Origin: an uncultured Gemmatimonadaceae bacterium
GTDB taxonomy: Bacteria; Gemmatimonadota; Gemmatimonadetes; Gemmatimonadales; Gemmatimonadaceae
Assembly (NCBI GenBank): GCA_963790305.1
Contig: CAWBOC010000010.1
Coordinates: 224,001 to 288,000, forward strand
Length of the DNA: 64,000 bases
Direction of reading: 5' to 3'
Under the pieces are notes generated by a model, which did not search any database, was not told the DNA's origin, and was given only the letters and a program-made list of their open reading frames with translations. Each line of letters begins with the position of its first letter. Position 1 is the stretch's first letter. Of this stretch, positions 981-61,300 are shown piece by piece. Position numbers and translations under genes: made by a program.

Positions 981-2546
981 ATGAGGAAACTACCTGTGAA
1001 GACCATGCTTCTGCGGGTTTGCGCCCTTGCGCTCGGCGTACCCGTTCTGCTCACTCTGCCGGCGTGCACCGATCTCGAGGAAACACCCCTCAGCGCGATC
1101 ACGCCGGACAACTTCTTCCGGAACGAGGGAGAGGTGCTTTCCGCGCTCGCAGCGGTGTATGCGCAGCTGCGCGCGACGGAATGGGGCTATTACAATCTCA
1201 GCCAGGTGAGCTCGGACGAGCACATCGTCCCGACTCGCGGCCAGGACTGGTATGACAATGGCCGCTGGCTGGAGCTCGACCGTCAGGCCTGGGCGCCTAA
1301 CAGCCCGTCCGGCCTCGATGACGTGAACGCGGGCTGGGTCGACTCCTTCACCGGCGTCGTTCGCGCCAACGCGCTGCTGGCCAACATTGAGGGAGTGACC
1401 CTCCCCAACAAGCCAGCCGTCGATGGCGAAATCCGGTTCCTCCGCGCGTTCTACTACTATCAGCTGATGGATCTGTTCGGTGGCGTGCCGCTGGTCACCG
1501 ACACCGAGCTGAAGACGCGGCCGCGGAACACGCGCCGGGAGATCTTCAACTTCATCGAGAGCGAGCTCCGCGCGATCCGCACGGCGCTGCCCGCGACGAG
1601 ACCGGCCGGTGAGCACGGACGCATTACGAGAGGAGCGGCCGACGCGCTCCTGGCCAACATGTACCTCAACGCCGGCGTGTTCGCCAAGGACGCCGGAGTC
1701 AGCGCGACGGCGTACAACTCGTGCGCGGACGTGCAGATCGGTGGCGTGTCGGCGTGCCAGCTGGCGATCAACTTCGCCGACAGCGTGTTGAACTCAGGCC
1801 GGTATTCGCTGGCGAGCAACTGGCGCTCGAACTTCACCGTCGACAACGATGCGTCGCCCGAGCTCATCTTCGTCGTCAAGCACCTGAATGCCACCGGCGT
1901 GGGATTGAACTTCCTGTATCGCGCGCTCCACTACAACCAGATCAGCCCCACCCCGTGGAACGGATTCGCGACGATCGCCGAGGTCTACAACGCATTCGAT
2001 GCGAACGACCAGCGGCGTGAGATCTTCCTCGTCGGGCCGCAGGTGAATCTGGACAACGGGCAGCCGGCGAAGCACCGCAATGGTGAGCCCCTGGTCTTCA
2101 CGGTCGACATCGGCAGTGAGACGGCGGCCGACGAGGACGAGGGCGCCCGCATCATCAAGTGGCCCCGCGATCCGGCCCACCTCAACGAGGAGCATGGCAA
2201 CGACTTCGCCTACTTCCGCCTCGGCGAGATGTATCTGATCAAGGCGGAAGCGCTGGTTGCGTCGGGACAGGCGGCGCTCGCGCTCCCGTTGCTGAACCTG
2301 CTGCGCGCTCGGGTCTTCGAGCCTGACGAGCCGCTGGTCGGCGTGCCCACGCAGGACATGATTCTCCAGGAGCGTCTCTTCGAGCTCACCGGCGAGGCGA
2401 AGCGGCGCCAGGACCTCATCCGTCATGGCAAGTACACCGCGGCGTGGCGCTTCAAGCCGGCAACCGCTGCACACAAGATTCTGATGCCGATTCCGCAATC
2501 GCAGATCGACGCCAACCCACAGCTCACGCAGAATCCAGGGTACTGA
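981..2546 (+). CDS. SusD/RagB-family nutrient-binding lipoprotein
   Basis: ATG 981 after GAGG; lipobox LPAC; GEIRFLRAFYYYQLMDLFGGVPL, FRLGEMYLIKAEA, ERLFELTGEAKRRQDLIR, NPQLTQNPGY. Confidence 0.93.
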   Translation: MRKLPVKTMLLRVCALALGVPVLLTLPACTDLEETPLSAITPDNFFRNEGEVLSALAAVYAQLRATEWGYYNLSQVSSDEHIVPTRGQDWYDNGRWLELDRQAWAPNSPSGLDDVNAGWVDSFTGVVRANALLANIEGVTLPNKPAVDGEIRFLRAFYYYQLMDLFGGVPLVTDTELKTRPRNTRREIFNFIESELRAIRTALPATRPAGEHGRITRGAADALLANMYLNAGVFAKDAGVSATAYNSCADVQIGGVSACQLAINFADSVLNSGRYSLASNWRSNFTVDNDASPELIFVVKHLNATGVGLNFLYRALHYNQISPTPWNGFATIAEVYNAFDANDQRREIFLVGPQVNLDNGQPAKHRNGEPLVFTVDIGSETAADEDEGARIIKWPRDPAHLNEEHGNDFAYFRLGEMYLIKAEALVASGQAALALPLLNLLRARVFEPDEPLVGVPTQDMILQERLFELTGEAKRRQDLIRHGKYTAAWRFKPATAAHKILMPIPQSQIDANPQLTQNPGY

Positions 2547-2571
2547 TCGCGATGCGGTAGTCGCTGTAGCC

Positions 2572-2899: not shown

Positions 2900-5800
2900 A
2901 TGAATTCCGTAGACTCCTTCCACGTGGCGACACGAGGGCACGTCTTGCTCCCGGCCCTCGTTCTGGTGCTGGCGTGCACGGGCATCGATGGAGCAGACAA
3001 GAATGAGTCGTCACCGCCCGCGGACGGGCACCTCTTCACGAAGCTTCCCTCGAGCTATACCGGCGTCCGCTTCGTGAACCGGCTGGAGGAAACCCGCGAG
3101 CTGAACGTCTTCACCTACCGCAACTACTACAACGGTGGTGGCGTCGCCATTGGTGACCTGACGGGTGACGGGCTGCCGGAGCTCATGCTCACATCCAATC
3201 TCGGTGGGAACACGCTCTACCTGAACGAGGGCAAGTTCCGCTTCCGCGATGTGACGGAGCGCGCGGGGGTGGGTGGGAAGGGCTACTGGGGAACCGGCGT
3301 CACCTTCGCCGACGTGAACGGCGACGGGCTGCTCGACATCTACGTGTGCTACGCCGGGAACGTCGCCGGCGAGCGTCGCACGAACGAGCTGTACATCAAC
3401 AACGGCGTGAGCTCGAACGGCGTGCCGACGTTCGCCGAGAAGGCGGCCGAGTATGGGCTCGCTGACGAGGCCTACTCGACGCACGCGGCGTTCTTCGACT
3501 ACGATCGCGACGGCCGGCTGGACATGTTCCTCGTGAACAACTCGTTCCGCCCGGTCTCGAGCTTCGGCCTCCGCAACATTCGCCACGTTCGCAACGCACT
3601 CGGCGGACACAAGCTCTTTCACAACGAGGGCACGCGCTTCGTCGACGTCAGCGAGAAGGCGGGCATCTTCGGCAGCGAGATCGGGTTCGGGCTTGGCGTC
3701 GCCGTGGGCGACGTGAATCGAGATGGTTGCCGGACATCTACGTCTCCAACGATTTCTTCGAGCGGGATTACCTCTACATCAACAAGGGCGACGGGACGTT
3801 CGCCGAGCGGCTCGACGAGCAGATGCCGTCGATCAGCATGTTCTCGATGGGGCTGGACCTGGCGGACATCAACAACGATGGCCTGCTCGACATCTACGTC
3901 ACGGACATGCTGCCGGAGGACAACTACCGGCTCAAGATGACGACGCAGTTCGAGGGCTGGGATGTCTATCAGACCAAGCTCGAGAACGACTACCACCACC
4001 AGTTCATGCGCAACATGCTCCACCTGAACAACGGGAACGGGACGTTCAGCGACATCGGCCAGATGGCCGGGCGTGGCGCGAACGGACTGGAGCTGGAGCG
4101 CGCTCATCGCCGATTACGATCTCGATGGGTACAAGGACATCCACGTCACGAACGGCATCGCGCGCGACCTGACGTCGCAGGACTACATCTGCCTTCCTGG
4201 CGAACGACGAGACCATGCGCTCGGCGATGCAGGGCGGGAAGCGCGTCGATTTCGTGCGGCTCGTCAACGCAATGAGTGAGACGCCACTTCCCGACTATGC
4301 GTTCAAGAACAACGGCGACCTGACGTTCTCGAAGAAGAGTGCGGAGTGGGGGGTAGATCAGCCGAACTTCTCGAATGGGGCGGCGTACGGCGACCTCGAC
4401 GGGGACGGCGCGCTCGATCTGGTGGTCAACAACGTCAACCAGGAAGCCTTCATCTATCGGAACAACGCCCTGGCGCAGACCGAGCAATCATTTCCTGCAG
4501 GTGAAGCTCGACGGTGAGGGCCAGAATCGGTTCGCCGTGGGCGCGAAAGTCACGGTACGCAGCGGGGACTCACTTTTCTTTCAGGAGCTCGAGCCCTCGC
4601 GCGGCTTTCAGTCGAGCGTCGACTACGTGCTGACGTTCGGCGTCGGTACGCGAGATACGCTCGATGCGGTGATTGTCGAGTGGCCCGACCGGCGCGTGAG
4701 CCGCGTGGAGAAGGTGGCCGCCAACCAGCGCATCACCGTTAGGCAGGCCGGGTCGATCCAGGAGCCGGTGCTCGAGATGCCGGTGCCCCCATCGCCTGTG
4801 CTCACCGACGTCACACGCGAGACGGGGCTCACTTTCGTCCATCGCGAAAACGAGTTCATCGACTTCGATCGTGAGCGGCTGCTGCCGAAGATGGTCTCAA
4901 TGGAGGGACCGTTCATGGCGGTCGCCGACGTGAACGGCGATGGTCTCGACGACGCGTACATCGGCGGCGCGAAGGACCAGGCGGGCCAGCTGCTGATTCA
5001 ACGCGCGAACGGCGGCTTCGTCAGCACCAACGAGCAGCTCTTCGCGCAGGATCGCATCTCCGAGGACGTGGGTGCGGTGTTCTTCGACGCAAACGGCGAT
5101 GGGCACCGCGACCTGTACGTGGTGAGCGGCGGAAGCGAGTTCTCCGACATGGCGCCGGCACTTCAGGATCGGCTCTATCTGAATGACGGACGCGGCACGT
5201 TCCGCAAGACGAGCGGGCAGATCCCGCACGACGGAACGAGCGGCTCGCGCGTGGTCGCGGCCGATTACGATCGCGATGGCGACGTCGACCTGTTCGTGGG
5301 CGGCCGCGTCGTCGCCGGGCCGGTATGGCTTCGATCCGCTGAGCACGCTGCTGCAAAACGACGGTCGCGGCCGATTCACCGATGTCACGGAGAAGCTGGC
5401 GCCGGCGCTCGCGCGTATTGGGATGGTGACCGATGCGGTGTGGACCGACCTTACTGGCGACGGGCGGCTCGATCTGGTGGTCGTCGGCGAGTGGATGCCG
5501 ATCACCGTGATGCGGAATGCGGACGGCGGAAAGCTCGAGAAGATGGAGGTGCGCGGGCTCGAGAAGAGCGAAGGGTGGTGGAACCGCATCGTGGCTGGCG
5601 ACTTCAACCGCGACGGCCGCACCGATTTCATCATCGGCAATCTCGGGCTCAACACGCGGTTGCGTGCGAGCGATACCGAGCCGGTGACGATGTACGTAAA
5701 GGATTTCGACAAGAACGGGTTCAGCGAGCAGATCGTGTCGTGCTACATGGAAGGCACGAGCTACCCGATCGTGCTTCGCGACGATCTCATCAAGACGCTC

Positions 5801-6533: not shown

Positions 6534-7935
6534 ATGAACGTACTACGAACACGACGATCGCACTCGTCACGACGTGCGCACTCCAGACCGCGTGCACGAG
6601 CGCGAACGGCGATTATCGCGCACAGCCGCCCGACGCGGAGCTGCTGCACACGGCCGTGCAGCAAATGACGAGCGTCATCGTCTACGACATCTTCAGCCCG
6701 CCGCAGGCCAGTCGCGCGTACGCGTACGCGAGCGTCGCCGCCTACGAGGCGCTGCGTCATGACGACTCGACGTACCAGTCGCTCGCGGGGCAGCTCACCG
6801 GACTGACGGCGGTCCCGATGCCGAAGCCCGACTCCGAGTACTACTTCCCGCTGGCGGGCGTGCACGCGTTCATGACGGTCGGCAAGGCGCTCACCTTCTC
6901 GCAGAAGCGCATGGATTCGCTGCGTACGGCGATGCACGAGCGCATCCGCGCGTATGGGCGTGCCCGCGGCCGTCTTCCAACGCTCAGTCGCCTATGGTGA
7001 AGAGGTCGCGCAGCACATCCTCGGCTGGTCGAAGAAGGACAACTTCCTCCAGATGCGCGGCATGCCGAAGTACACGGTGACGTCGAGACCAGGGCCGGTG
7101 GAGGCCGACGCCGCCGGCGTACATGGACGCCGTCGAGCCGAACTGGGCCAGGCTGCGCCCGTTCGTCATGGACTCAGCCGCTCAATTCCGGCCGAAGCCG
7201 CCGCATCCGTTCGACATGAAAGATGGGAGCGCCTTCCGTCAGCAGGTGCAGGAGGTCTACGAGGCGGGGAAGAACCTCAGCGACGAACAGCGCGCGATCG
7301 CCGCATTCTGGGACTGCAATCCGTACGTGATGAACGTTCGTGGTCACGCGATGTATCGCGACGAAGAAGATCACGCCGGGAGGCCACTGGATGGGGATCG
7401 TGGCGACGGCGGCGCACAAGGCGCACGCGTCGCTCCTCCAGTCGTCCGAAGCCTACGCGCTGACCGCTATGGCACTGGCCGACGGATTCATCAGCTCGTG
7501 GGAGGAGAAATTCCGCAGCAACGTCGTGCGACCCGAGACGATGATCAACGCGTCACATCGACGAAGCGTGGCAGCCGCTCCTGCAGACGCCGCCGTTCCC
7601 CGAATACACGAGCGGCCACAGCGTCATCTCGACAGCGGCGGCGACGGTGCTGACCAGTGTGTTCGGTGACAACTTCGCGTTCGCGGACAGCACGGAGATG
7701 AGCTACGGGCTACCGGTGCGGTCCTTCACGTCGTTCAATCAGGCCGCCGCCGAGGCGGCGATCAGCCGCCTCTACGGGGGCATCCACTACCGGATGGCGA
7801 TCGAGGCAGGGTGCCACGCAGGGACGCGGTGTGGGCCAGCTCGTGGTGCAGCGGATCAAGACGCGCGCGTCGACCACGGTGGCGGCGAAAGCGGCCGCCG
7901 AGGAATCGGGGCGCGCGGAAACGCGCGCCCGTTAG
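6534..7935 (+). CDS. Vanadium-dependent haloperoxidase / PAP2-superfamily protein; about 6 frameshifts
   Basis: Stitched frames give DIFSPPQASRAYAY, IAAFWDCNP, KKITPGGHW, EKFRSNVVRPET, TPPFPEYTSGHSVIS and SRLYGGIHY (PAP2/VHPO motifs); TAG at 7933-7935. Confidence 0.82.
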
Positions 7936-7950
7936 GGCTTTCCGTCGAGA

Positions 7951-10666: not shown

Positions 10667-10667
10667 T

Positions 10668-10772: not shown

Positions 10773-13700
10773 TGCCGGATGCAATCGCGCCGAGAGCGCG
10801 CCGCCGCTGTTCGAGCTGCTGCGGCCCGAGGCGACGGGCGTGACGTTCGTCAACGAGCTGCCGGAGAGCCGCGAGTTCAACATCCTGAACTATCTCTACT
10901 ACTACAACGGCGGTGGAGTGGCGGCGGGGGACATCGACAACGACGGGCTCACCGATCTGTACTTCACGTCGAACCTCGGGTCCGACCGGCTCTATCTGAA
11001 CAAGGGGAACTATCGGTTCGAGGACATCACCGAGACGGCCGGGGTGAAGGGACCGGACGGGTGGTCGAGCGGCGTCACCATGGCGGACGTCAATGGAGAT
11101 GGCCGTCTCGACCTCTACGTGTCGGCGGTCCACTACCTAACGATGACCGGCCGCAACGTCCTGTACGTCAACAATGGCGATCGGACCTTCACCGACCGCA
11201 CCACGGAATACGGGCTGGATCACGCCGGATACTCCACCCAGGCGGCGTTCTTCGATTACGACATCGACGGCGATCTGGACATGTATCTCCTCAATCACTC
11301 GATCCACATCGAGCGGTCGGTGAGCCAGAAGCCGCAGCGGTCGCCGCCGTCACCCGCGGGCGGGGGACAAGCTCTTCCGCAACGACGGCAACCGCTTCGT
11401 CGACGTGAGCGACAAGGCCGGGATCTACGGTGGCGTCGAAGGATATGGCCTCGGGGTCGTCGCCAGCGACCTGAACGTGGACGGATGCCCCGACCTCTTC
11501 GTCGCCAATGATTTTCAGGAGAGCGACTTCCTGTACATCAACAATTGCGACGGGACCTTCACCGAGTCGATCGGCCGGGCGATGGGGCACACCAGCCGAT
11601 TCTCGATGGGAGTCGACGCCGCCGACTTACAACAACGATGGGCGCCCGGACCTCATGGTGCTCGACATGCTCCCGGAGCGCGAGGACATCCTGAAGACGT
11701 CGGCGAACGCCGAAAACTTCAACATCTACGATCTGAAGGTGAAGGCGGGCTATCACCCTCAGTTCGCGCGCAACACCCTGCAGCTGAATCGCGGCGCTGG
11801 TCGATTCAGCGAGATCGGCTATCTGGCCGGCGTGTACGCGACCGACTGGAGCTGGGCGCCGCTCTTCGCCGACCTCGACAACGACGGCAACAAGGACCTG
11901 TTCATCACCAACGGGATTTACCGTCGTCCGAACGATCTCGACTACATCAACTACGTCAGCAACACCGAGTTCCAGCGGACGCTGGCCATGTCACTGCCCG
12001 ATCGCATCACCGAGCAGAACATGACGCTGCTGCAGCACATGCCGCAGATTCCGCTGGCGAGCTTCGCGTTCCGCAACAACGGCGACCTGACGTTCACCAA
12101 TCAGGCGGAGGCGTGGGGGCTGGCGCAGCCGGGCTTCTCGAATGGTGCGGCGTACGCCGACTTGAACAACGACGGTGCGCTCGATCTCGTGGTGAGCAGC
12201 GTCAACGGGCCAGCGAGAATCTACCGGAGTCGCGCGAGGGAGAATGGAGGCCACTTCCTGACGGTGCGACTCGAGGGCGAGGGAGCGAACACCGCGGGAG
12301 TCGGCGCCAAGGTCATCGTCCGGCATGGCGCCATTCGACAGCTGCTGGAGCAGATGCCGACTCGCGGCTTTCAGTCGTCGGTCGAGCCGCGCCTTCACTT
12401 CGGGCTCGGTCCGGCGCAGACGATCGACTCGCTCCTCGTGGTGTGGCCGGATCGGCGCTTCCAGGTGCTCACCAACGTCAGTGCCGATCGTGCGCTCACG
12501 CTGTCGCAACGCGATGCCGCTGGGCGGTACGCATATGCACCGCCGACGCCCGGCGCCAGTGTTCGCCGATGTCACGACCGACGCCGCCATCGACTTCACG
12601 CATCGCGAGAACACGTTCTTCGACTACAACCGCGAGCCCTTCATCCCGCATCGGGTCTCGACGGAAGGGCCGGCGCTCGCCACGGGTGATGTCAACGGCG
12701 ACGGGCTCGATGACATCTACGTCGGCGGCGCGAAGTGGCAGGCGGGCGGCCTGTTCGTGCAGCAGCGAGACGGGGGCTTCCGCGCGAGCAACCGGGGCGT
12801 GTTCGGCGCCGATAGTCTGCATGAGGACGTCGACGCGGCGTTCTTCGACGCAAACGGCGACGGGTACGCCGACCTGTACGTGGTGAGCGGCGGCAACGAG
12901 TTCTGGGGAGAGGAAGAAGCGCTACGCGACCGCCTCTACCTGAACGATGGCCGAGGCAACTTCCGACGCGCGACCGACGCTCTTCCTGCGATCTTCGAGA
13001 ACGGATCAGCCGTGGTCCCGGCCGATTACGATCGCGACGGTGACGTCGATCTTTTCGTAGGGAGCCGCGTCGTCGCCCGCGGCTACGGCCTTGCCCCGCG
13101 CAGCCATCTGCTTCAGAACGACGGTAAAGGGCGGTTTGCCGACGTGACGGGCGAGAAGGCGCCGGAGCTCGCCACGGTCGGGATGGTGTCATCGGCGACG
13201 TGGACCGACTACGACGGCGACTCCCGTCTCGATCTCGTGGTCGTCGGCGAGTGGATGCCGGTGACCGTAATGCGGAATTCGGAAGGCGGAAAACTACAGA
13301 AGGTCCGGATCTCCGGTCTCGAGCACAGCGACGGCTGGTGGAACACCGTCACCGCCGCCGACGTCAACGCCGATGGTCGCGCCGACCTCGTGCTTGGCAA
13401 TCTCGGGCTCAACTCGTACATCCGTGCCTCGCAGGATGGGCCCGCGCGGCTCTACGTCCATGATTTCTTTCAGACCGATGCGCTCAAGCAGGTCCTCACG
13501 TTCTACAAGAATGGCGTGAGCTATCCGCTCATGGGGCGCGACGACTTCGTGCGGACGATGCCGCAGCTGCGCAGCAAATACGACTCGTACGCGAAGTTCG
13601 GGGCGGCACGTATCGAGGACATCTTCCCGCGCGAGCAGCTCGAGAAGGCAACCGTTCTCGAGGCGCACCAGTTCGCGAGCGCCATCGCGCTCAACAAGGG

Positions 13701-14109
13701 CAACGGAGGATTCGACCTCCAGCCGCTGCCTGCCGAAGCGCAGTTCGCGCCCGTGTACGCCACGATGGCCGAGGATTTCGATGGCGATGGCCGCGTCGAC
13801 ATCCTGCTCGGCGGCAACTTCGACGGGGTGACGCCCCTGCTCGGGCGATACGACGCGAGCTATGGCCTGCTGCTTCGCGGGGACGGGACAGGCCGTTTCG
13901 CTTCGATGGATCTCGCCGAGAGCGGGTTGCTCATCGAGGGGCAGGTGCGCGACATGAAGCCGCTAAGACATGTGACGGGGCGCGTGATCGTGGTCGCGCG
14001 AAACGACGACCGCCTTCAGCTGCTGCGGACGCTCCGGGGTTCCGGCCTAACGCGGGTCAGTGCGCAGGCTTCAGCCGACGCTGGACGGCCGCGCTCGTCA
14101 GCTCCCTGA
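10717..14109 (+). CDS. Second FG-GAP/VCBS-repeat ASPIC/UnbV lipoprotein; frameshifts near 11355, 11627, 12553
   Basis: AGGGAG then ATG 10717; lipobox LAGC; YYYNGGGVAAGD, ATDWSWAPLFADLDNDG, PTRGFQSSVEPRLHFGLG; paralogous to 2900-6435. Confidence 0.87.
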
Positions 14110-15715: not shown

Positions 15716-15879
15716 CCCTTTCGACGGCGGACGGTATGCTCAGGACAAGGCGTTCAGGACGCCTCCAGTCCGCGGAGAGGACCGAGTCCACCTGGTTGGC
15801 CTAACGATCGATCCTGGGTTCTCACGAACCTCCTTGGCCCCACGCAGCGGACAGCGGGCCGGTCCAAAGGAGGCTCGTC

Positions 15880-17288: not shown

Positions 17289-17407
17289 GGGCCAAGCCGT
17301 ACCGACTGTCTCGTTAGGCGGGTATGCACTGGCGCCCTCGCCCCCGCACGACCATCATTTGCCCAGTTACCACCCTTAGAAGAACGGCTGGAGCGGAGGC
17401 TCCCCCA

Positions 17408-25044: not shown

Positions 25045-25050
25045 CCATGC

Positions 25051-43101: not shown

Positions 43102-43509
43102 CAACTGGCACATCTCCAGCACGCGGTCGAGTGGCTCCAGCGTCAGCTCCAGGCGGACCCAGGTCGACGCGAGCATCGATATTGGCTTGGCAGCGCGCTG
43201 TACGATCTCGCCCGGTGGCGCGAGGCAGACGCGGTGTTTAACGCCCTTTACCGGGACTTTCCCGATCGCGCCCAGTATCGGGGCCTTGCCGCCCTCACTC
43301 GGGCCCGGCGGGGAGACCCTCGTGGCGCCGCGCGGTTGTTAGGCGACCCGCCGCGCCACGCGCGTGGGGAGCACACGACCTTCCAGGCCCGGCTCGCGGC
43401 GATCGCCGGTGATACAGTTGCCGCGCGGACACTGTACCAGCGGGCGCGCGGCGAGATCGCGCCGGGCTTTGCGTGGCTGCACGCGTCGGGGTTCCGGGAC
43501 TTGAGATAG
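43102..43509 (+). pseudogene. Start-less fragment of a TPR-like helical protein
   Basis: Open frame after TAG 43099-43101: AVEWLQRQLQADPGRREHRYWLGSALYDLARWREADAVFNAL...; no early start codon. Confidence 0.5.
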
Positions 43510-48872: not shown

Positions 48873-51459
48873 CGAGAAGCCGTTGGGCTTCGGTGGCGGC
48901 CCTCGTTAGGGCCTCCCGGACGGGTCGCGTGCCGTACACCGCAGCCTCTTCGTATGCTTCCGACAGGAGGTCGAAGATCTCGACGATGTCGGGATCGAGG
49001 TCGAGATCGCGCGTGCGGCCAACGTACGTGGCGTAGGTGACGAGCGTGGGCCAGCGTGCGAGCGCGGCAGCAAAACGGGGGTCCCCGGCGAGTCCGGCGC
49101 GGTATGGCAGCTGACTCGCGTGCTCGATCAGCAGACGGTCAGCGGCAGGAGAGGTGAGGTATGCAACGAACCGCGCGGCGGCATCCGGATGTCTGGTCGT
49201 AGAGAAGATCGCGATGCTGCGGAGATCGGCGAAGGCGAAGCGATCGTTGGGACTCGTTCCGTCCGCGGCAGGAACTGGGGCGACGTCGTACCGCAGTCCG
49301 GGAACCTTGAGCTCGTTCAGCTCCCGCACGAACCACGGACCGATGATCTTCATCGCGACCGTGCCATCGACGAACGGGTCTCGGCCTAACGAAAAATTCG
49401 CGCGAGGCAGGCTTCCCTCATCGAACCCGCTGCGCAGGACCTCGAGAGCGGCGACCGCCGCGGCGTTGTCGAACGTCACCTTCCCATCGGCGACCAGCGT
49501 TCGGCCGCCGGAGCTGGCGAGGTACAATGGGTAGAAATCGTAGAAGCGCTCGAACCAGGTCGTCTTGAGGCCGGCCCAGAACGGCCACCGATCGATGCGG
49601 CCGTCGCCATCGGTATCGCGAGCAAGACGGCGGAAGGCATGGAGGAGCTCGCTGTGCGTACGCGGGGGCTCGAGCCCGGCTGCCGCCAGGAGATCCACGT
49701 TGTACATCAGCATCTCGGGATTCGTCTTCCACGGAAACGCATAGATCCCGCCGTCGGGCAGGCGGAGCGACGCGAGCATCGCCGCGTTCGTGCGCTCGCG
49801 CAGCCGAGCCGCCGTCGCGACGCGATCGTCGAGGCGAACGACGCTTCCGGCCCGGACCAGTCGTGCCAGCAACGCCGATGAGACGTTCGAGCTGATGTCG
49901 GGCGTTGCCTTGGCCACGATCGCGGCGAGCAGGACCTCCTCCGACGAACGCCCGGCGGGAAGGGGCTGCACCCGTACCTGAACCGAGGGATTCTCCGCGT
50001 TCCACTGCGAAGCGAGCCGCGTGGCGAGCCACGTTTCGGAGGGGTTCGCCGCCGGCCAATAGGTCAGCGTAACGGGCGCAGCGGTCGCCCGCGATTCGAC
50101 GATCTCGATGCCTTGTGCCTGACGACTGAGCGTCAGGGGTGCCTCATCCGGTCCCTTGAACTCGCGGCGATCGGAAAGGCTGGTCAGCGATGCCGCAGGG
50201 CCATCGGTCGTGCGATACCCCAGGTATTCCATCGCCTCGGGGCTGGCACTGACGCGTTGCAGGGCGAGCAATGCCTCGATCGTGGACTCGGCGCCGGAGT
50301 TCCGATTCACCTGCTCGGCTGAAGGCCCGTCGATGCCATCGAACGTGCGACCAGTCATCTGGTCGTACATGCTCACGTGGGCCGGGTTCGCGCCGAGGAA
50401 CCATGACGCGGTCAGACCGGCGAAGACCGCATACCGACGATCGCCGGTGGCCTCGGCCAGGTCCAGGTACCCCTCGACCACCGGCCCAATCCCATACGCG
50501 ATCTGGGGGAATGACCGCACGGCACCGTTAGGCGCCACCTCCCAGGGGACTTGGCCTGCGAGCAGGAATCGTCCCCAGAGCCCATCCGCCTCCTGCCGCG
50601 CCGCCGCCAGAAGATCGGGCCGGTTTAGCGCGATGGACGTGCGCGCCAGCGCCGCCGTAGATCGGGATCCCCACGCGTGCCACGTTGCGGTTGGCTGATC
50701 CGTCCGCGCACCCCATGGCGGGGTAGTCGAGCTCCCGCGAGACAGCGGTACGAGCAGCGCCGCCATTCGGGCGGCCAGCGAGGCCAGCCGTGGCGTCGGC
50801 TCGGCCTCGTGCAGGGCGAGGATGCCGAGCAGCGCCTCCGATGTCGCGGTGGCCGATCCACCAATGAGGCGTCCACCGTCGACCTCGCGGGCCATTCGCG
50901 CGATGGCCCGATCGAGAACCGCACGGGCGCCGCTCACGGACTCCAGATCCTCAGTTCCGAGCACGCGCACCGCTTCGCCGAGCGCCCAGATGCTGCGTGC
51001 GGCCCAGTACGACATGCTCTTTCGGCTACTCGGAGCCGTGCGGTTGAGCCGGCCCCGTGCATCGATGAAGTTGATGAACTCGCCATCGCCTTGCTCCATC
51101 GCCGCGACGAAGGAGAGCAGCCCGAGCGCCTCCTCTCGCGCGCGTTGATCGCCTGTCATCTCGAAGGCGCGCAGGTACACGACCGCGGCACGGGCGGCGT
51201 CGTCCAGGCTGGCGATGCCCTCCGAGCCATCGCGTTCGGGAGAAGGCGTCGGCCGATAGTCGGGCGCTTCGGCGTACAGCGCCACGACGCGGACGGGGCG
51301 ACCATTCACTACCGCGTCGAGGCCGAGACGTCGCAGATGATCGAGCGACAGGGCGAGCGGCGGCGTAGCGGCGGGCGGCGGTCCGGACCGGGAATCCCCC
51401 GCGCACGCCGCGATGGGCGCGGCGAGGACGAGTATCCTCATCGTGCGATGGACGTTCAC
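48862..51459 (-). CDS. Lipoprotein fusing a helical catalytic-like domain to a C-terminal sugar ABC solute-binding domain
   Basis: Lipobox IAAC; N-domain LDDAARAAV, RSIWALG, NRNSGAESTIEALLAL; SBP from about 50076 downward (VTLTYW, YAFPW, YNVDLL, VAMKIIGPW). Confidence 0.8.
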   Translation of the reverse strand: MNVHRTMRILVLAAPIAACAGDSRSGPPPAATPPLALSLDHLRRLGLDAVVNGRPVRVVALYAEAPDYRPTPSPERDGSEGIASLDDAARAAVVYLRAFEMTGDQRAREEALGLLSFVAAMEQGDGEFINFIDARGRLNRTAPSSRKSMSYWAARSIWALGEAVRVLGTEDLESVSGARAVLDRAIARMAREVDGGRLIGGSATATSEALLGILALHEAEPTPRLASLAARMAALLVPLSRGSSTTPPWGARTDQPTATWHAWGSRSTAALARTSIALNRPDLLAAARQEADGLWGRFLLAGQVPWEVAPNGAVRSFPQIAYGIGPVVEGYLDLAEATGDRRYAVFAGLTASWFLGANPAHVSMYDQMTGRTFDGIDGPSAEQVNRNSGAESTIEALLALQRVSASPEAMEYLGYRTTDGPAASLTSLSDRREFKGPDEAPLTLSRQAQGIEIVESRATAAPVTLTYWPAANPSETWLATRLASQWNAENPSVQVRVQPLPAGRSSEEVLLAAIVAKATPDISSNVSSALLARLVRAGSVVRLDDRVATAARLRERTNAAMLASLRLPDGGIYAFPWKTNPEMLMYNVDLLAAAGLEPPRTHSELLHAFRRLARDTDGDGRIDRWPFWAGLKTTWFERFYDFYPLYLASSGGRTLVADGKVTFDNAAAVAALEVLRSGFDEGSLPRANFSLGRDPFVDGTVAMKIIGPWFVRELNELKVPGLRYDVAPVPAADGTSPNDRFAFADLRSIAIFSTTRHPDAAARFVAYLTSPAADRLLIEHASQLPYRAGLAGDPRFAAALARWPTLVTYATYVGRTRDLDLDPDIVEIFDLLSEAYEEAAVYGTRPVREALTRAATEAQRLLDAR

Positions 51460-52442
51460 AGAGGCACTCCGCCGCCCTGCTCTCGGATTGCGATGTCGAG
51501 GGACGCCACCAGCTCTCGCTTGCCGACGCGCGCGCCCGCCACCGCTACGTCGGCGGCGCCGTAATACACGATCAGATCATCGCCGCGCGCGACGAGACCC
51601 TCGGGGAAGACGACCCGCACCCCGGTTTTGAAGTTTGCCGGATCGACCTGCGGGATGGGCCGAAGCTCGATCTCGTAAGGCGCCTTCGGCGTCAGCGCCG
51701 GCTCATCGGAGACATACAGAACGTGCTCCGGCTTGGCGACGTCGAGCACGCACCAACCCATCGAGTAGACATTGCCTTCCGCGATGCTGGTGGCGCCGTG
51801 AAAGGGCAGGAGCCACCCGACCGACGTGCGAATCGGGGGCGCGCCCGCGCCCACTCGGGAGCTGCGCCAGGTTCCAGGCTGCGGGCCTATCAATGGTACG
51901 CCACTCTCTGGCCACGGCTCCTCGAGCGAGGATACCCGTGCGCAGACGATACGCGGCATGGGTCGGTGCAGAATCACGTACTGACCATCGACCTTTTCGG
52001 GAAGAATCACACAGTTCTTGTTCTCGCCGGCAATGCGCGGGCCATGACGGCGATAGCGCTCGGGCGCCAACAGGTCGTCGGTCGTGATCAGGCAGACCCG
52101 CGGCCCCTCTGGCGAATATCCAGTGTAGGTGATGGCGTAGCGTCCTTCACCTTCGAGGTAGGTGATCCGCGCGTCCTCGACGCCCCATTCCTCGTAGGGC
52201 GCCTGACGGGCGATGGCGGGGCGATCCCAGATCTCGTCGATGCGTTGGCCGTCCGACGACAGGGCGAGACCAAGACAGGAACGCTTCGTCTCCGCCTCGA
52301 ACACCCTAACGAGCAGCACGACGCGGTCTGTCGCCCGGTCGACGGCTACGCCTGGATTGAACGCGCCGCTTGCGCGAGCGAACGGAATGTGAGACGGATG
52401 AATGAGTGGGTTGCCGGGGAGCCGCTCGAGAGCTGCAATCAT
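51456..52442 (-). CDS. GH130-family glycosidase/phosphorylase
   Basis: NPLI, AFNPGV, GVEDARIT, NKNCVILPEK, VGAGAPPI, VVFPEG, YYGAAD. Confidence 0.88.
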   Translation of the reverse strand: MIAALERLPGNPLIHPSHIPFARASGAFNPGVAVDRATDRVVLLVRVFEAETKRSCLGLALSSDGQRIDEIWDRPAIARQAPYEEWGVEDARITYLEGEGRYAITYTGYSPEGPRVCLITTDDLLAPERYRRHGPRIAGENKNCVILPEKVDGQYVILHRPMPRIVCARVSSLEEPWPESGVPLIGPQPGTWRSSRVGAGAPPIRTSVGWLLPFHGATSIAEGNVYSMGWCVLDVAKPEHVLYVSDEPALTPKAPYEIELRPIPQVDPANFKTGVRVVFPEGLVARGDDLIVYYGAADVAVAGARVGKRELVASLDIAIREQGGGVPL

Positions 52443-53614: not shown

Positions 53615-54675
53615 GGATGGGACAACTCTGCCATGATCTCGCCGAGCGACAGGTCGGCGGCGGCCGTGACCCCATCCGCGGCCCCATAGTAGATGCGTAC
53701 CAGATCTCCCTCTGCGAGAAGCCCGCAGGTGAAGACGACGCCGCCGAAGAAGCCTTCGCGTTCGTAGGGTGCCTCCGGGGTGAGGATGGGTTCGCGCGAC
53801 CGCCCGATCACCTGCGCTGGATCGTCCGCGTCGAGGAGCAGGGCACCGAGGGAGTACGTCATCGGCGATCTCGTGACGCCGTGGTAAATGGCGATCCAGC
53901 CGTCTCGATCGGCCGTCCTTACGCGAATCGGGACCGCGCCCCCCCCGATCTTGGCGTCATCCCAGCGGCCGTCGCGCGCCGATGCGACGAGTCGGTGCTC
54001 GCCCCAGGAGAGGAGGTCAGACGACGACGCCAGCCACATTGCCGGCCGGCCGATCCCTTCCGGCATGGGCCGGTGCAGCGCGATGTAGCGGCCGTCGATG
54101 CGATCGGGAAAGATCGTGACGTCGCGATTGTTAGGCGGAAAGATGATCCCGTGACGCTCGAACGTTACGAAATCGGTCGTGGACGCAAGTGCCGTCGCGA
54201 TGCCATGTGGCGACACGGCGGAATAGTTGATCCAGTACGTCCCATCGAGCAGGGTGATGCGGGGATCCTCGATCCCAAAGGACTCGTAGGGTGTGGCGGG
54301 AAACAGCGCGGGCACGGGATCCACCTCGAAGCGGATGCCGTCCGTCGAACGTGCCAGGCGCAGGTGCGAGATCGACGTGAGCCACGTGCACCCATCGACC
54401 GTTACCGTCCGAGGATCGCTCGCATCGACAGTCTTCTCGTCGCGACGCCACCGCTTGATCTCGAGACGGTCGGTCTCGGAATCGTACACAGGTGCCGTGA
54501 CCTCATGCGTCGACGCACCGCGCACGGCCTCGGCCACCCGCAGCAGCAGGAGGACATGGCCCCCGTGCCGTGTGACTGCCGGGTTGAAGACACCTACAAC
54601 GTCCAGATCCGGCCGCGAGGGTGAGACCATCGCGGGAGTCAGTATCGGATTCTGGGTCGCTCGGTGAGCGCGCAT
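53611..54675 (-). CDS. GH130-family glycosidase/phosphorylase
   Basis: NPIL, VFNPAV, LLLRVAE, LTSISHLRLARSTDG, GIEDPRIT, HRP, KIGGGAVP, YHG, VVFTCG, YYGAAD. Confidence 0.9.
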   Translation of the reverse strand: MRAHRATQNPILTPAMVSPSRPDLDVVGVFNPAVTRHGGHVLLLLRVAEAVRGASTHEVTAPVYDSETDRLEIKRWRRDEKTVDASDPRTVTVDGCTWLTSISHLRLARSTDGIRFEVDPVPALFPATPYESFGIEDPRITLLDGTYWINYSAVSPHGIATALASTTDFVTFERHGIIFPPNNRDVTIFPDRIDGRYIALHRPMPEGIGRPAMWLASSSDLLSWGEHRLVASARDGRWDDAKIGGGAVPIRVRTADRDGWIAIYHGVTRSPMTYSLGALLLDADDPAQVIGRSREPILTPEAPYEREGFFGGVVFTCGLLAEGDLVRIYYGAADGVTAAADLSLGEIMAELSHP

Positions 54676-54802: not shown

Positions 54803-56131
54803 ATGAGCAGCGCACTGCCGCGACGTTTTGGCGTCTGGGCTGCGCTGGCGATGATCATCGCCGAGGTCATGGGGGTCGGCATCTTCCTCACGCCAGCGTC
54901 AATGTCGCGCACCTTCGGCTCGACATCGTGGGTGCTCGCCGTGTGGGGGCTGGTGGGACTTCTGTCAGCCGCCGGTGCGCTGTGCTACGCGGAATTGGGC
55001 AGCCGTTTTCCCGAGGCGGGGGGCGGCTACGTCTACCTGCGTGAGGCCTTCGGGGAGCGGTGCGCGTTTGTCTACGGCTGGATGTCGCTCCTCGTCATGG
55101 ATCCGGGTCTTACCGCGGCGCTCGGCGTTGGACTCGCATCGTATCTGCTCGTCCTGCTTGGCGGATCGCCATCATCCGTGCCGGTGGTGGCGATTGCCTG
55201 CATCGTGGTGCTGGCGACCATATCGACGCTCGGGATCGAGAGCAGCGCACGTGTCCTGCGATGGACCGCGATCGCGAAGCTCGCGACGATCGGTCTGCTC
55301 ATCGTCGTCGTGCTCGTGCGTGGGAATTCGGCTGACCCTACCGTGGTGGCCGTCGATCGCGGAGTCCCAGCATTCCCGGCATTGGCCGGCGCGCTCATGG
55401 GTGCGTTCTTCGCGTTCGGGGGGTGGTGGGACCTTGGCAAGATGAGCGAAGAGATCGTCGAGCCGCGGCGAACACTCCCCGTCGCGCTCGTGGGAGGCGT
55501 GGTCATCGTGACGCTGGTGTACGCGGGCCTGAGCGTCGCGTTCACGCATGCGATGCAGGGCCGGCCGGTGCCCAGCGACGAGGCCTTCGTCGCATCGTTA
55601 GGCTCGGCGCTCTTTGGGGATGGGGCGGGGCAGGTGTTGGCCGGGGCGGTCGTGGTGGCCGTGGCCGGGAGCCTGGCGGCGGTGCTGCTCGGCGCGCCGC
55701 GCGTCTACCTTGCCATGGCGCGGAGCGGCGTCTTCCCCGCGTCGCTGGTTCGCTTTGATCTTCGACGACAATCGGCCCCACGTGCGACGCTCATCCAGGT
55801 CGTGCTGGCATGCCTGCTCGTGATGCTCGGCTCCTTCGACCAGATCCTGGGCTATTTCATCCCGGCGGCGGTGTTCTTTCTCGGACTCTCCGCCGCGGCG
55901 ATCCTGTTCCTCCCGAGACCAGCGGAGAGCCCGGGGATTTTCCGCGCGCCCTGGCACCCGCTGCCGATCATCGTGTTTCTCGTGCTCGTCGTGATCATGG
56001 TGGTGCTGTTCGCGGTGGGGCGGCCGGTCCAGACGGCGATCGGGGCCGCCGTCGTGACGCTCGGGATTCCGATATCGTTCCTCGTCGTCAAAACGCGCGG
56101 GCGGGCGAACGCCGTGTCGGCGCCTGAGTGA
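54803..56131 (+). CDS. APC-family amino acid permease
   Basis: GVGIFLTP, YAELGSRFPEAGGGYVYLREAFG, SEEIVEPRRTLP; about 12 TM segments. Confidence 0.9.
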   Translation: MSSALPRRFGVWAALAMIIAEVMGVGIFLTPASMSRTFGSTSWVLAVWGLVGLLSAAGALCYAELGSRFPEAGGGYVYLREAFGERCAFVYGWMSLLVMDPGLTAALGVGLASYLLVLLGGSPSSVPVVAIACIVVLATISTLGIESSARVLRWTAIAKLATIGLLIVVVLVRGNSADPTVVAVDRGVPAFPALAGALMGAFFAFGGWWDLGKMSEEIVEPRRTLPVALVGGVVIVTLVYAGLSVAFTHAMQGRPVPSDEAFVASLGSALFGDGAGQVLAGAVVVAVAGSLAAVLLGAPRVYLAMARSGVFPASLVRFDLRRQSAPRATLIQVVLACLLVMLGSFDQILGYFIPAAVFFLGLSAAAILFLPRPAESPGIFRAPWHPLPIIVFLVLVVIMVVLFAVGRPVQTAIGAAVVTLGIPISFLVVKTRGRANAVSAPE

Positions 56132-56967: not shown

Positions 56968-58383
56968 ATGGAGAAGCCACGCCTCAGCTTCTGGCAGATG
57001 TTCAACATGAGCTTCGGATTCCTCGGCATTCAGTTCGGCTGGGGGCTGCAGCTCGCCAACATGTCGGCGGTGTACGAGCGGCTCGGCGCCCGGCCGGACG
57101 AGGTCCCGCTGCTCTGGCTCGCGGCGCCGGTCACCGGGCTGCTCGTGCAGCCCATCGTCGGCGCCCTCAGCGATCGCACGTGGGGGGCGCTCGGGCGCCG
57201 CCGCCCGTATTTCCTCACCGGGGCAATCCTCGCCTCCATCGCGCTCTTCATCATGCCGACGTCCACGACCCTGTGGATGGCGGCTTCGCTGCTCTGGATC
57301 CTCGACGCCTCCATCAACATCTCGATGGAGCCGTTCCGCGCCTTCGTCGCCGACAAGCTCAACACGAGTCAGCGGACCGCGGGCTTCGTCATGCAGTCGT
57401 TCTTCATCGGCGTCGGCGCGAGCCTCGCGAATGCGCTCCCGCTCGTGCTCAGCCGCCTCGGCGTCGAAGGGAATACCGCGAGCGGAATTCCCCTTTCCGT
57501 GAAGTACTCGTTCCAGGTCGGGGCGGCGGTATTCCTGTTCGCCGTCCTCTGGACGGTATTCACGACGACCGAGTTTCCGCCGGAAGACCCCGCGGCGTTC
57601 GATCGCGCGCGCCGCGACCGTCGTGGGCTCGGCAACCTCGTGCGCGAGATCGCGGAGTCCATTCGCGGGATGCCGCCTACCATGCGTCAGCTTGCCGTCG
57701 TCCAGTTTTTCACCTGGATGGGGCTCTTCTGCATGTGGCTCTTCTTCGTGCCGGCGACGGCGCGCCACGTGTTCGGCGCTACCGACACGCAGTCGGCCGT
57801 CTACACGCAGGGGATGGAGTGGGGCGGGGCCGTGTTCGCGTTCTACTCGATTACCTGCTTCATCGTCGCGCTCGCGCTTCCGAAGCTCGCCGCGCTCACC
57901 AGCCGCAAGACCGTCCATGCGTTCGCGCTCGTGTGCGGCGCGGTGGGCCTGCTCTCCGTCTACGTCATTCACGATCGGTATCTCCTCATCCTCAGCATGG
58001 TCGGCGTCGGGATCGCGTGGGCATCCATCCTCTCCATGCCGTACGCCATCCTGTCTACGGCGCTGCCGGCGAGCCGCATGGGCGTGTACATGGGCGTGTT
58101 CAACTTCTTCATCGTCATTCCCGAGATCATTGCCGCGTTAGGCTTCGGCCCCTTGATCCGCACCGTGTTCGGGGAGAACAATGCGCAGGCGCCGCTCTAC
58201 ATCGTCATGCTGGGCGGCGTGTTTCTGTTGACGGCGGCGGCGTGCGTGTCGTTCGTGCGGGACGTGGGCGAACGGAACGTGCCGGAGGGCGACGTCATCA
58301 GAGCCGACGCGCAGGAGCATCTGCTCGCGCAGCCTGGAGTTCAGCCCGTGCCGAGTAGCGGGCTCGTCGACGAGTCTCGATGA
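56968..58383 (+). CDS. MFS sugar transporter (maltose/sucrose, SLC45-like)
   Basis: [28 protein letters not shown]...[35 protein letters not shown]. Confidence 0.9.
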
Positions 58384-61300
58384 TCGCTCGCCTCCTCGCG
58401 CAGGTCGTCGCGCTGACGCTCATTGTCGCCGCGGCACTTCCAGCACAGTCGACCGGGTCGCTCGCCGGTCACGTTCGCGACGACGACGGAGCTCCCGTTT
58501 CCGGTGCCGTCGTCACCGCGACCCGCTCCGACGGATCCATCGTCCGGCGTGACGTCTCCGGCATCGACGGGCGCTATCGCCTCGGTCTGCTGCCGCCCGG
58601 GGATTACACGTTGGTCGGCCGCCGCCTCGGCTTCCGCCCGTCCTCGCAGGAGGGCATCGCCATCGCATCGGGCGCGTCGGTCGAAGTCGACATCGTGATG
58701 CGCGACGCACCCACCGCGCTCGAGACGGTGGTCGTCGGCGCGGCGCCGAACGCCATCGATCAGGAGGACACGCGGTTCGGCACGCGCATCGACGAGGCGG
58801 AGCTGTCAGCGTTGCCACTCGGCTACGACTTCACCTCGATCATCGCGTTCACGCCCGGCGCGCGCCCCGATCAGGTGTGGGGCGGCGCGACCGAGCAGGC
58901 GAATAGCTACGTCGTCGATGGCGTGGCGCTCAATCACCCTGGCGTCGGCGGCGCGCTCATCCCGCTCAACCCGAGCTGGCTCGAGGAGCTCGAAGTCACC
59001 GGCCTCGCCGCGGGCGCCGAGTACGGCAACTTCCAGGGTGGGCTCATTCGGGCGGTGACGAAGTCGGGGTCCAATACGCGAACGGGGCTCCTTCGCGTCA
59101 ACGGCGAGACGGACCGTCTCAACAGCACCAACATTGGCTCCACGGAAATCAGTGCCGAGCTGGCGGGACGTCGCGAGGTGGAGGGCGAGCTTCGCGGGCC
59201 GCTCGTTCGCGATCGGCTCTTCTATTATCTCGCCGGCCAGCTGGTGCAGCGCGAGCTTCGCGTGCTCGATCATTTGGGAAACACGAGCGTGGCGGGACGT
59301 TTTCTTCCAACGCTCGGGACTCACGACGAGCGCAAGCTCTTCGGCAAGCTCACGTGGCAAGCCAGCCCCCGCGACGTCGTCGACGCATCGCTTGGCCTCG
59401 TCGATCTGGAGGCCGAGCAGTATGCGCAGACGGGCTTCGAGACGTCCGAGGCGGGCACGCGGCTGAGCGCGCCGACGCTGTTCGGCCTGCTCTCATGGCG
59501 GCGCTCGTGGGGAGCGCGGGCCCTTCTCGATATTCGAGTGGCGCGTCTCGATGGCGATGAGCGTCGCGACCCGTACGGCGGCACCACCGTGGCCGGAATG
59601 CGAACGTGGGAGATCGGCGGAGATCGGTCGTATCACAACGCGACGTTTCGCGACCGGTTCGCGCCGCTGACGACCGCCATCTCGGCGGACGCGAACATTT
59701 TCTCGTCGGGCGGCGGTACCGTCCGGCACTACTGGAAGGCCGGCATCGAGCTCTCGAAGTCGCGATATGTGCACCAGCATGTGCGCAACGGCGGCATGAC
59801 CTGGCGACCGGCCGCGCCCGACCGACCGACGTTCAATGCAGCGCTGCCGGCGACCTGGCCGGAGAGCCGCATCATTCCGGTGAGCACAGGTGGTGAGGTG
59901 CGGCTCGACGCCGACATCGAGAATGGCGCCATCTATCTCCAGGATCGCCTGGAGCTCGGGCGACGGGTGAGTCTGTTGTTAGGCGCGCGGCATGGGTGGT
60001 GGTACGGGGCGCTCCGGCCCCAGGGCGAGCGACAGGATCGGCTCGAGGCCGTTCGCGACTTCGCGACCGAGCCGCGCGTCGGCGCGATCGTCGATCTGAC
60101 GGGCAACGGACGCTTCGTGGCCAAGGTGCATTGGGGGCGCTACCACCAGCACCTCTTCGCACAGTTTTTCGACCGCGTCGAAGGCGGTGGCGTCTTCACC
60201 AACGATCAGTTCTGGTATTACACCGGCGCGACGCCGAGTAATCCGCGCGCGACATTCACCGAGGCGCAGCGCGACTCTCTCGTCGACGCCGGACAGCTCA
60301 CGCTGATGGACGAAATCCGGCTCAACGAGGAAGGCGCCGTCTTCAACTACCGTCAGCCGTACATCGATCAGGTCGTCGTCGGGCTGGAACGTTCCATCGG
60401 GTCGCGATGGAAGGCGGAAGCGGTGTACGTCGGCCGTCGCAATCGGCGGCTCGTCGCGCTGGTGGACCGGAACCTCGAGTCGAACTACACCGCATTCACC
60501 GATCTGCGCGTCACCAATCGCTTCGGCGGCGTGATTCGCGATCACAATGGGCAGCCGCTGGTACTCCCCGTCGTGTATCTCCCGAACGACGCGCTGGTCC
60601 GTCGAATCCTGGAGACGGTCCGGCCCGGTGCGCCGGCGCTGCCGAACTATCGGTTTGCCGACATTCCCGCGCTGACGTGGAACCCGGTGTACCAGATCAC
60701 GACCGCTCCGGGGGCGCAGCGGGTGTTCGATCAGGGCCAGCTCATCGTCTCCGGGCGGTTCCCCCTCTGGTCGGTGACCGGCTCGCTGGCGCTGACGCGG
60801 CTCGAGGGCAACCTGTTCAGCGTCACTGGGTATGACGATCCCGCCGGTCATGGGGCGGGCCCCTTCGTCCGCCCTAACGAGTCCATTCTCGGATTCGGCC
60901 GGCTCGGAAACTCCGCCGAGATCGAGGCCAAGCTGCGCGTGACCGGAGCGCTCCCATTCGGCTTCCGCGGCGGCGCTTTTGTCACCGCCATGCGGGGCGA
61001 CGCGTTTGCCCCAACGTTCACGCTCAACGGACTGTTGTTCAACTTCGACCTCAATGACTCGACGGCGATCCGCGCCGACACGTCGCGCATCGACTACACG
61101 GTGTTCCGTCCAGTCTCGGGGCAGCGCGTGTTTCTGGAAGAGCGGGGCAGTCGCACCTATCCGGATCGCGTGACACTCGATCTCCACCTGGAGCGAGGCT
61201 TCCACCTGGGCCGCGCCGAGTGGGTGCTCTCGCTCGATGGCTTCAACGTGCTCGGCAACAGCGCGATCACCGAGGCCAACATCGCGATCGATTCACAGAG

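Follow-up and report, generated by a model that had tools for sequence, protein, structure and literature searches.

To our knowledge, sequence-specific uptake tags have been established only for two proteobacterial families, and the function of HIP1, the highly iterated palindrome of cyanobacteria, is open. The known systems closest to the element described here are the DNA uptake sequences (DUS) of the Neisseriaceae, with ComP as receptor, and the uptake signal sequences (USS) of the Pasteurellaceae, with ComN/PpdA as predicted receptor. A stretch of 64 kb from an uncultured Gemmatimonadaceae bacterium (assembly GCA_963790305.1, contig CAWBOC010000010.1, positions 224,001 to 288,000), below called the window, was analysed for the heptamer GCCTAAC/GTTAGGC. 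The word with the GCCTAAC core was found to be a maintained, non-polar and undescribed genome signal, nearest in its behaviour to DUS and USS. As the best reading we tentatively propose molecular drive through biased DNA uptake.

Some properties of the described systems are relevant for this comparison. Passages of Treangen 2008 (PMC2397512) state that one DUS per fragment is enough and that two close motifs bring nothing more, and for Haemophilus influenzae a part of PMC3458573 gives the consensus USS as the best-taken-up sequence. HIP1 is described in a section of PMC5861425 as conserved beyond codon effects.

Over-representation of the word

Exact counting revealed 13 copies of GCCTAAC and 13 of GTTAGGC in the window, 26 in total, where 1.5 (order-2 Markov) or 1.7 (order-3) were expected, and the pair ranked first among the 7-mers of the window. 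The initial annotation had listed 25 copies, all of them (25/25) at exact coordinates, and had overlooked one further copy at 4738; the over-representation that it reported was real. The source genome of the window (G000; relatives' genomes are numbered in the same manner) comprises 4.31 Mb in 13 contigs and is 94% complete. It carries 1105 copies of the heptamer against 87 (order-2) or 96 (order-3) expected, the top ratio among all 7-mers, distributed over 13/13 contigs with 0.16 to 0.34 copies per kb.

Genes of G000 were predicted with a dicodon-based caller (4013 genes, 85% coding), which is imperfect where the assembly seems frameshifted. The called genes contained 886 copies, compared to 82.1 +/- 6.8 in ten within-gene synonymous shuffles, a 10.8-fold excess, and the neighbour words GCCTAAA, GCCTAAG, GCCTAAT, GCTTAAC, GACTAAC, GGCTAAC and GTCTAAC reached only 0.07-0.25 of the same null. 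The signal thus exceeded both the Markov and the codon-preserving expectation, and similar TAA-containing heptamers were not equally frequent, the comparisons by which it had been proposed to judge it. All four stop-free reading frames were occupied, by 464, 195, 155 and 68 copies. A codon or amino-acid composition artefact was ruled out by this four-frame use together with the excess over the codon-preserving null.

Rare codons are the main route by which the word is accommodated in genes. Of the TTA codons in called genes, 588/1070 lie inside CCTAAC/GTTAGG, and TTA makes up 26.7% of the leucine codons framed as CG|Leu|GGC versus 0.6% of the others; the two rare leucine codons singled out by the initial annotation (GCG-TTA-GGC at 21558 and GGC-CTA-ACG at 20424) were correctly read. 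No forced amino-acid change was seen, the identity to word-poor orthologues being 0.72 for 66 occupied and 0.65 for 1261 unoccupied positions in this small sample. Word density was alike in genes (0.20 per kb) and spacers (0.17 per kb), and the occupancy of synonymous opportunity sites climbed with GC3 from 4.6% to 7.6%. A low-GC polysaccharide gene cluster was devoid of CCTAAC over 30 kb.

A graded site and the deficit of its perfect form

The claim of a maintained genome signal of HIP1 or uptake type was supported, but the unit is not the heptamer. It is the asymmetric YGCCTAACGAG, followed by a weaker T (11-12 bp), of which the heptamer is the core, and it is graded, with positions compensating for each other. 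Cores with one mismatch were 3-6-fold enriched only if A came next, more strongly with a following G and a preceding pyrimidine; the form GCCTGACGAG, for example, was present 285 times in G000 versus 29 expected. At C2, T4 and C7 of the site no substitution was tolerated. From this variant screen only non-CCTAAC variants were used, since masking the word during training of the null inflated the ratios of CCTAAC words. Including variants, G000 holds about 2900 site matches, part of them chance. Genome G020, from another genus, offered an independent check: the full 11-mer made up 144/194 (74%) of its GCCTAACG copies and was dispersed, and five inspected perfect sites all had T next and all lay in coding frames. 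Compensation between the positions of a graded 12-bp site would point to a protein as its reader. A longer repeat or mobile element was rejected, as the flanks are uninformative beyond about -1 to +11 and vary between sites in G020. In 100 kb sampled from G012, GCCAAACG was enriched beside GCCTAACG (22 vs 16), a possible shift of specificity at position 4.

The perfect 11-mer accounts for only 3/855 core sites of G000. Measured with matched controls differing only at T4, enrichment was 0.02, 0.07, 0.24, 0.68 and 0.88 by flank matches and collapsed at the perfect 11-mer, with 3 copies against 52 matched controls (0.06). The one-mismatch forms amounted to about 840, those at tolerant positions occurring 11, 39, 49, 473, 53, 31, 190 and 45 times (some of these numbers include background). 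In nine congeners pooled, 51/6855 core sites were perfect (0.74%) versus a matched-control share of 5.9%, the background level in 9/9 genomes; in other word-rich genomes the perfect share was 0.9-8.5%. As word-poor genomes have 0-6 perfect sites each, the perfect site of this genus is near background, not below it. No G020-like genome was hidden among 60 low-count ones (0/60; 0-6 perfect sites).

With 2 more parameters, an additive-energy band-pass model gained 32 log-likelihood units over a saturating one, predicting 4.8 perfect sites, versus 51.9 for the saturating model and 3 observed. Occupancy in the TTA frame was 32/197 with G1+A9 versus 301/1052 with G1 alone (P=2e-4), and 30/61 with A1+A9; the CCT frame was concordant (14/61 vs 137/298). 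The model gain and the drop in occupancy speak for a rival reading, in which an intracellular and probably horizontally spread 12-mer binder (chromosome-organising, repair-biasing or selfish) acts under a dose ceiling. Moderate occupancy would be favoured, a single ceiling would disfavour perfect sites as well as close pairs, and the favoured range would shift with protein level or affinity. This reading accounts for the perfect-site deficit at least as well as uptake does, and a specificity constant over three families would suit a conserved cytoplasmic protein more than a fast-evolving pilin; overall we consider it possible, but rather unlikely. The three perfect sites of G000 are all intergenic, which has little weight because neutral TAA words are 58-69% intergenic; a transcription roadblock at perfect sites was accordingly unsupported, and the intracellular binder draws no evidence of a transcription block from these sites.

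Sites in the window

The core sites of the window are given first; the genes that host them are ordinary and unrelated to each other.

1295..1301, plus strand: core site, GCG CCT AAC, SusD-family gene
4738..4744, minus strand: core site overlooked in the initial annotation, inside an FG-GAP/ASPIC open reading frame (4375-5937) dropped by the gene caller
14045..14051, plus strand: core site, GGC CTA ACG
15799..15805, plus strand: core site, intergenic or gene edge
17310..17320 (core 17313-17319), minus strand: perfect 11-mer CGCCTAACGAG, intergenic; the genome has only 3 such sites
20425..20431, plus strand: core site, GGC CTA ACG, phosphotransferase system (PTS) EIICB gene
21560..21566, minus strand: core site, GCG TTA GGC, PTS EIICB gene
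23836..23842, plus strand: core site, GTT AGG C, amidohydrolase gene (minus strand)
25049..25055, plus strand: core site, intergenic or gene edge
26829..26835, plus strand: core site, CCG CCT AAC
27680..27686, minus strand: core site, CCG TTA GGC, beta-lactamase-family gene
28462..28468, plus strand: core site, ATG CCT AAC, at the called start
31456..31462, minus strand: core site, ACG TTA GGC
32362..32368, plus strand: core site, ACG TTA GGC, minus-strand gene
35149..35155, plus strand: core site, intergenic or gene edge
39040..39046, minus strand: core site, ACG TTA GGC, alpha/beta hydrolase gene
41935..41941, plus strand: core site, GCG CCT AAC, gamma-glutamyltranspeptidase gene
43338..43344, minus strand: core site, TTG TTA GGC
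44300..44306, plus strand: core site, CTG TTA GGC, alpha-amylase gene (minus strand)
45017..45023, minus strand: core site, GCG CCT AAC, alpha-amylase gene
49384..49390, plus strand: core site, TCG TTA GGC, solute-binding protein gene (minus strand)
50527..50533, minus strand: core site, GCG CCT AAC, same solute-binding protein gene as the 49384 site
54130..54136, minus strand: core site, CCG CCT AAC, GH130 gene
55597..55603, minus strand: core site, TCG TTA GGC, amino-acid permease gene
58137..58143, minus strand: core site, GCG TTA GGC, MFS gene
59978..59984, minus strand: core site, TTG TTA GGC, TonB-dependent-receptor-like gene

For the variant sites below, the enrichment holds for the classes, and any single copy may be chance.

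7930..7937, minus strand: variant site CCCTAACG
11135..11142, plus strand: variant site ACCTAACG(A)
20057..20067, minus strand: variant site CGCCTGACGAG
26480..26487, minus strand: variant site CCCTAACG
28790..28800, minus strand: variant site TGCCTTACGAG
28957..28964, plus strand: variant site TCCTAACG(A)
31858..31868, plus strand: variant site CGCCTTACGAG
32388..32398, minus strand: variant site CGCCTCACGAG
37217..37224, plus strand: variant site ACCTAACG
37723..37733, plus strand: variant site CGCCTCACGAG
41373..41383, minus strand: variant site CGCATAACGAG
44483..44490, plus strand: variant site CCCTAACG
48904..48911, minus strand: variant site CCCTAACG(AG)
51672..51682, minus strand: variant site CGCCTTACGAG
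52304..52311, plus strand: variant site CCCTAACG(AG)
60872..60879, plus strand: variant site CCCTAACG(AGT)

The FG-GAP/ASPIC (UnbV-like) proteins of the window (2852-6307 and 11508-14109) appear to be split across overlapping frames, which hints at frameshifts or errors of assembly. Across G000, mostly intergenic repeat words resembling families of repetitive extragenic palindromes (REP) were seen, namely GAATGCG tandem units (148 doublets), CTGACTCCTG (248), CTGACCCC (298), GCCTCTAG (189) and CTAGCGCC (271). The two 16S genes scored differently (1556 against 1489 bits), and their sequences diverge in at least one stretch.

Spacing and polarity

Close pairs of the word are avoided in G000, where 28 neighbour gaps were below 300 bp and 82 were expected. 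For comparison, 250 sampled 7-mers of similar abundance had a mean short-gap ratio of 1.18, and apart from the word itself the lowest value was 0.74. Synonymous opportunity sites within 100 bp of another site were occupied in 4/675 cases (0.6%); with growing distance, occupancy was 0.6, 1.5, 3.3, 4.1 and 6.6%, then about 7-8% past 500 bp. The function p(1-exp(-d/L)) fitted these data with L=425 bp (350-525) and a log-likelihood gain of 71. The four pair orientations were equally depleted below 300 bp (9, 7, 6 and 6 pairs), and a 60-kb sample of G016 showed the same effect, with 11 gaps below 300 bp versus 24. Under biased uptake, such an exclusion zone could arise because another copy a few hundred bases away or less would travel on the same fragment and bring no further gain. 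Flank matches were also fewer at sites that had another site less than 300 bp away (mean of 2.55 vs 2.85), which supports the intracellular binder but is also expected from simple redundancy.

The absence of strand polarity reported initially was confirmed by the equal numbers on both strands of the window (13+13) and by a replichore test based on the skew of the draft contigs, in which 46% of the words lay on the G-rich strand, compared to 44% for the control and 66% for the KOPS-like GGGNAGGG (KOPS, FtsK-orienting polar sequence). On either side of dif the strand splits of the word were 15:16 and 40:26, and no transcription polarity was detected in G000. Neither an ori/ter density gradient in G000 nor periodicity of the sites, tested to 200 kb, was found, which also counts against the intracellular binder. 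The density of Chi in E. coli resembles that of the word, one per 4 kb, and would agree with a polar signal of the Chi or KOPS type. However, the word has no polarity, and a search of G000 (94% complete) for the RecB/AddAB nuclease family PF12705 gave no match (the protein searches here and below used single queries on draft genomes, where absences are not proofs). With the codon null exceeded 10.8-fold and four frames in use, this type of signal and the codon or amino-acid artefact are already largely refuted and highly improbable. A dif-like site is located at the skew switch (C6:185754-185781); as it does not contain the word, a Xer site was rejected as an explanation.

Conservation and distribution among relatives

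The conservation that the initial annotation had suggested examining in orthologues was clearly present in congeners. In alignments with 83-85% identity, 26/31 and 36/43 sites were kept, versus 0.20 and 0.17 for TAA/TTA controls, and at 77% identity 30/61 were kept versus 0.11 for the control; these are site observations, and a site present in both genomes enters them once from each. Divergence was not lower near shared sites. The word-rich genomes G012 and G016, of other genera, shared 0/14 and 0/32 sites with G000, and a small sample of G002 shared 0/2.

With 150 copies of GCCTAACG as cut-off, 18/41 near relatives, 13/171 sampled genomes of the order and 0/80 from other orders were word-rich. 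Kin are not independent in these tallies, and those over the 41 relatives and over the order include an unpublished word-poor genome (G015), on which alone no claim rests. The word-rich set spans 15 genera and three families of one order, with 173 to 6360 copies and the word unchanged across families. Its density varies 30-fold, from about 0.04 to 1.25 GCCTAACG per kb, which fits a varying strength of drive and not a vital function. The 158/171 sampled genomes of the order below 150 copies indicate that the function is dispensable, a point against the intracellular binder.

Two loci titled Gemmatimonas aurantiaca contained 1 CCTAAC in about 21 kb each. Samples of 40-100 kb from 16 word-poor genomes were searched for an alternative word, or dialect, and among the matches listed no comparable word was present except in G024 and G037. 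In G024, a GCCTAAC-poor genome, the palindrome ACTAGT occurred 38 times versus 3.4 expected in 100 kb and may be an iterated word or a repeat. Over-represented GCCAATAGCC-like words of G037 and GCGGGAAGCGG-like words of G023 are probably repeats.

Candidate enzymes and the relation to integrons

G000 encodes a 1021-aa type IIG-like adenine methyltransferase next to a SNF2-like helicase (C7:233022-238370). The IIG-like enzyme was present in 39/41 relatives irrespective of the word, and its C-terminal region has no evident residues specific to word-rich genomes; in other orders one of five genomes gave a clear match and three a partial one, so that order specificity is not established. The two genes form a single-copy pair kept across the order, which is unusual for a restriction-type enzyme. 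A D12-class methyltransferase was found in 15/41 genomes but not in the word-rich G012, G016, G021, G022, G036, G038 and G040. G000 gave no match to the C5 or N6_N4 methyltransferase families, and N6_Mtase had no further match there or in G237.

These results bear on a mismatch-repair ratchet linked to a methyltransferase in the manner of HIP1, in which a new methylatable site would direct repair to the other strand until a nearby site removes the bias. MutS is present in G000, the IIG-like enzyme and its helicase are conserved across the order, and saturation at short range is predicted by such a ratchet according to part of PMC4390886. On the other hand, neither the IIG-like nor the D12-class enzyme follows the word, so that the ratchet failed the co-occurrence test, the other families named above were not found, and divergence does not drop near shared sites. 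The ratchet is therefore quite improbable, and the earlier suggestion of a methylation system as maintainer was not upheld, as no methyltransferase follows the word across relatives. We know of no methyltransferase sites resembling a graded 12-bp site with compensation. NucS was not found in G000 either, and a viral-contig search and an OmpA-like query gave no matches.

The initial annotation had also pointed to the integron consensus GTTRRRY. This agreement is limited to the 8-bp core and does not extend to the genome's own attC ends: at the crossover ends in G000 (strict pattern, n=28) CGTTCTGC occurred 15 times, CGTTATGC 11 times and CGTTATAC twice, and the chromosomal word was seen in 0/28 boxes, or in 1/31 (CGTTAGGC) with a looser pattern. 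The integron integrase itself could be the reader, with the word as its GTTRRRY crossover box at secondary sites and perfect sites purged as insertion hotspots. In favour of this, five attC sites within 2.9 kb of the word-poor G027 have the 8-bp core as right end (CGTTAGGC), CGTTATGC, a variant that the site tolerates, occurs as an attC end of G000, and G000 carries an intact integrase with an array of about 30 kb. However, the integrase passed the cut-off in 28/41 genomes, rich and poor, and in 4/5 further rich ones, and thus failed the direct co-occurrence test; the attC ends of G000 are other words without the A9 and G10 preferences, and off-target recombination would be expected to deplete sites, not to enrich them. 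We regard this explanation as improbable.

Integron attC sites beginning with GCCTAAC were found in the moderately rich G170 and in the poor G027, G061 and G216; G170 being rich, an anti-correlation of the word with attC ends is not clean and was rejected. Chromosomal copies lack a hairpin partner, with 4/1092 neighbour gaps below 110 bp and single copies in the window. For attG sites, a passage in 10.1101/2022.09.11.507474 gives only a GWT consensus. The integron of G000 is a sedentary chromosomal one after lgt (C9:694912-727000) with about 30 attC sites; its end CGTTCTGC departs from GTTRRRY, and several cassettes look by eye like toxin-antitoxin pairs. In G016, the most word-rich genome, the integrase is in three frameshifted pieces (C182:835-1781).

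Proposed mechanism

In the uptake reading, one sequence-specific protein would recognise the asymmetric YGCCTAACGAG(T) in double-stranded DNA, and DNA bearing one site of workable strength would gain a transmission advantage when DNA is exchanged among these bacteria. The likeliest step would be uptake in natural transformation (type IV pilus, ComEC, DprA). Silent changes creating a site would spread and those destroying one would revert, which would constitute molecular drive. The reader would have to catch the DNA and then release it, and for this reason the strongest site would bring no gain in this genus; lineages of the G020 type, with a weaker or scarcer reader, would retain mostly perfect sites. 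Four parts of this reading are inferred, namely that the reader is a protein, that drive and not direct selection is at work, that uptake is the step concerned, and the catch-and-release mode. The orientation-free exclusion, the scarcity in foreign-looking DNA and the range of densities fit drive by biased exchange; among known processes, it is uptake that bears these marks.

Several points weigh against this proposal. The perfect 11-mer is at background in 9/9 congeners, unlike the USS consensus, and catch-and-release is an added assumption that rescues uptake from this deficit. G000 has a competence set with DprA and three minor-pilin clusters, but ComEC, found in 41/41 relatives, fails to separate rich from poor genomes; in the profiling against recombinases and competence genes suggested at the outset, integron integrase and ComEC were found in word-rich and word-poor genomes alike. 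Two of four FimT-like globular domains were searched in 80 genomes, where distant pilins can be missed, and neither follows the word; one of them had no match in most of the word-rich genomes outside the genus, yet the word itself stays the same over three families. Inverted-pair terminators, as known for DUS, are absent. The intracellular binder, for its part, has no candidate protein from the searches.

A broader formulation is also conceivable but doubtful, namely that a horizontally spread DNA-binding system of the Gemmatimonadales writes its own 12-bp site and holds it within an affinity window, favouring moderate sites but neither the strongest one nor close pairs, and that it stands outside the known signal classes (uptake, Chi, KOPS, HIP1 and integron). 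If true, the height of that affinity window would differ per genus, and each genome would record the working concentration or affinity of its reader. Sharp quantitative predictions follow from the exclusion length (about 425 bp) and from the band-pass profile. Since the word is on in 15 genera and rare in most of the order, it constitutes a natural experiment through which the reader should be findable by whole-proteome profiling. If uptake is the true explanation, self-tagged sex extends to a major soil phylum; if it is not, the word represents a new kind of chromosome-wide signal.

Comparison with known systems

A whole-word search of the literature returned GCCTAAC only in an integron context (PMC12901181) and four longer forms not at all; motifs inside longer printed sequences and supplement tables would escape such a search. 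No report of an over-represented word of the uptake-sequence type in Gemmatimonad bacteria was found, though k-mer survey tables could still mention it. Like Chi and KOPS, the element is a short asymmetric over-represented word, but it lacks replichore polarity. With the R box (GTTRRRY) of integron attC/attI sites it has in common the 8-bp core, which several relatives carry unchanged as the crossover end of attC; it differs in having no paired ends 40-140 bp apart or hairpin, in its additional A9/G10 preferences and in being independent of integrase presence. HIP1 (GCGATCGC) is likewise a hyper-abundant word in all reading frames. However, HIP1 is palindromic, has links to methyltransferases for GATC and CGATCG and is reported as periodic, whereas the word is asymmetric and graded, with no matching methyltransferase and no periodicity to 200 kb.

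The greatest likeness is to DUS and USS, and competence genes are present, equally so in word-poor genomes. Shared traits are a non-palindromic unit of 9-12 bp, a copy number in the hundreds to thousands, placement on both strands and within genes, conservation and scarcity in foreign-looking DNA; for DUS, one copy per fragment is enough (PMC2397512). The word differs in phylum and sequence, in the lack of inverted-pair terminators, in the avoidance of close pairs and in a distribution that is patchy by genus with the word unchanged. Whereas DUS and USS favour the full consensus, this genus does not (3/855 in G000, 51/6855 in the genus); the full form prevails only in G020 (144/194). As it lacks this defining feature, the word is not classed as a member of the DUS/USS systems, which remain its closest known counterparts.

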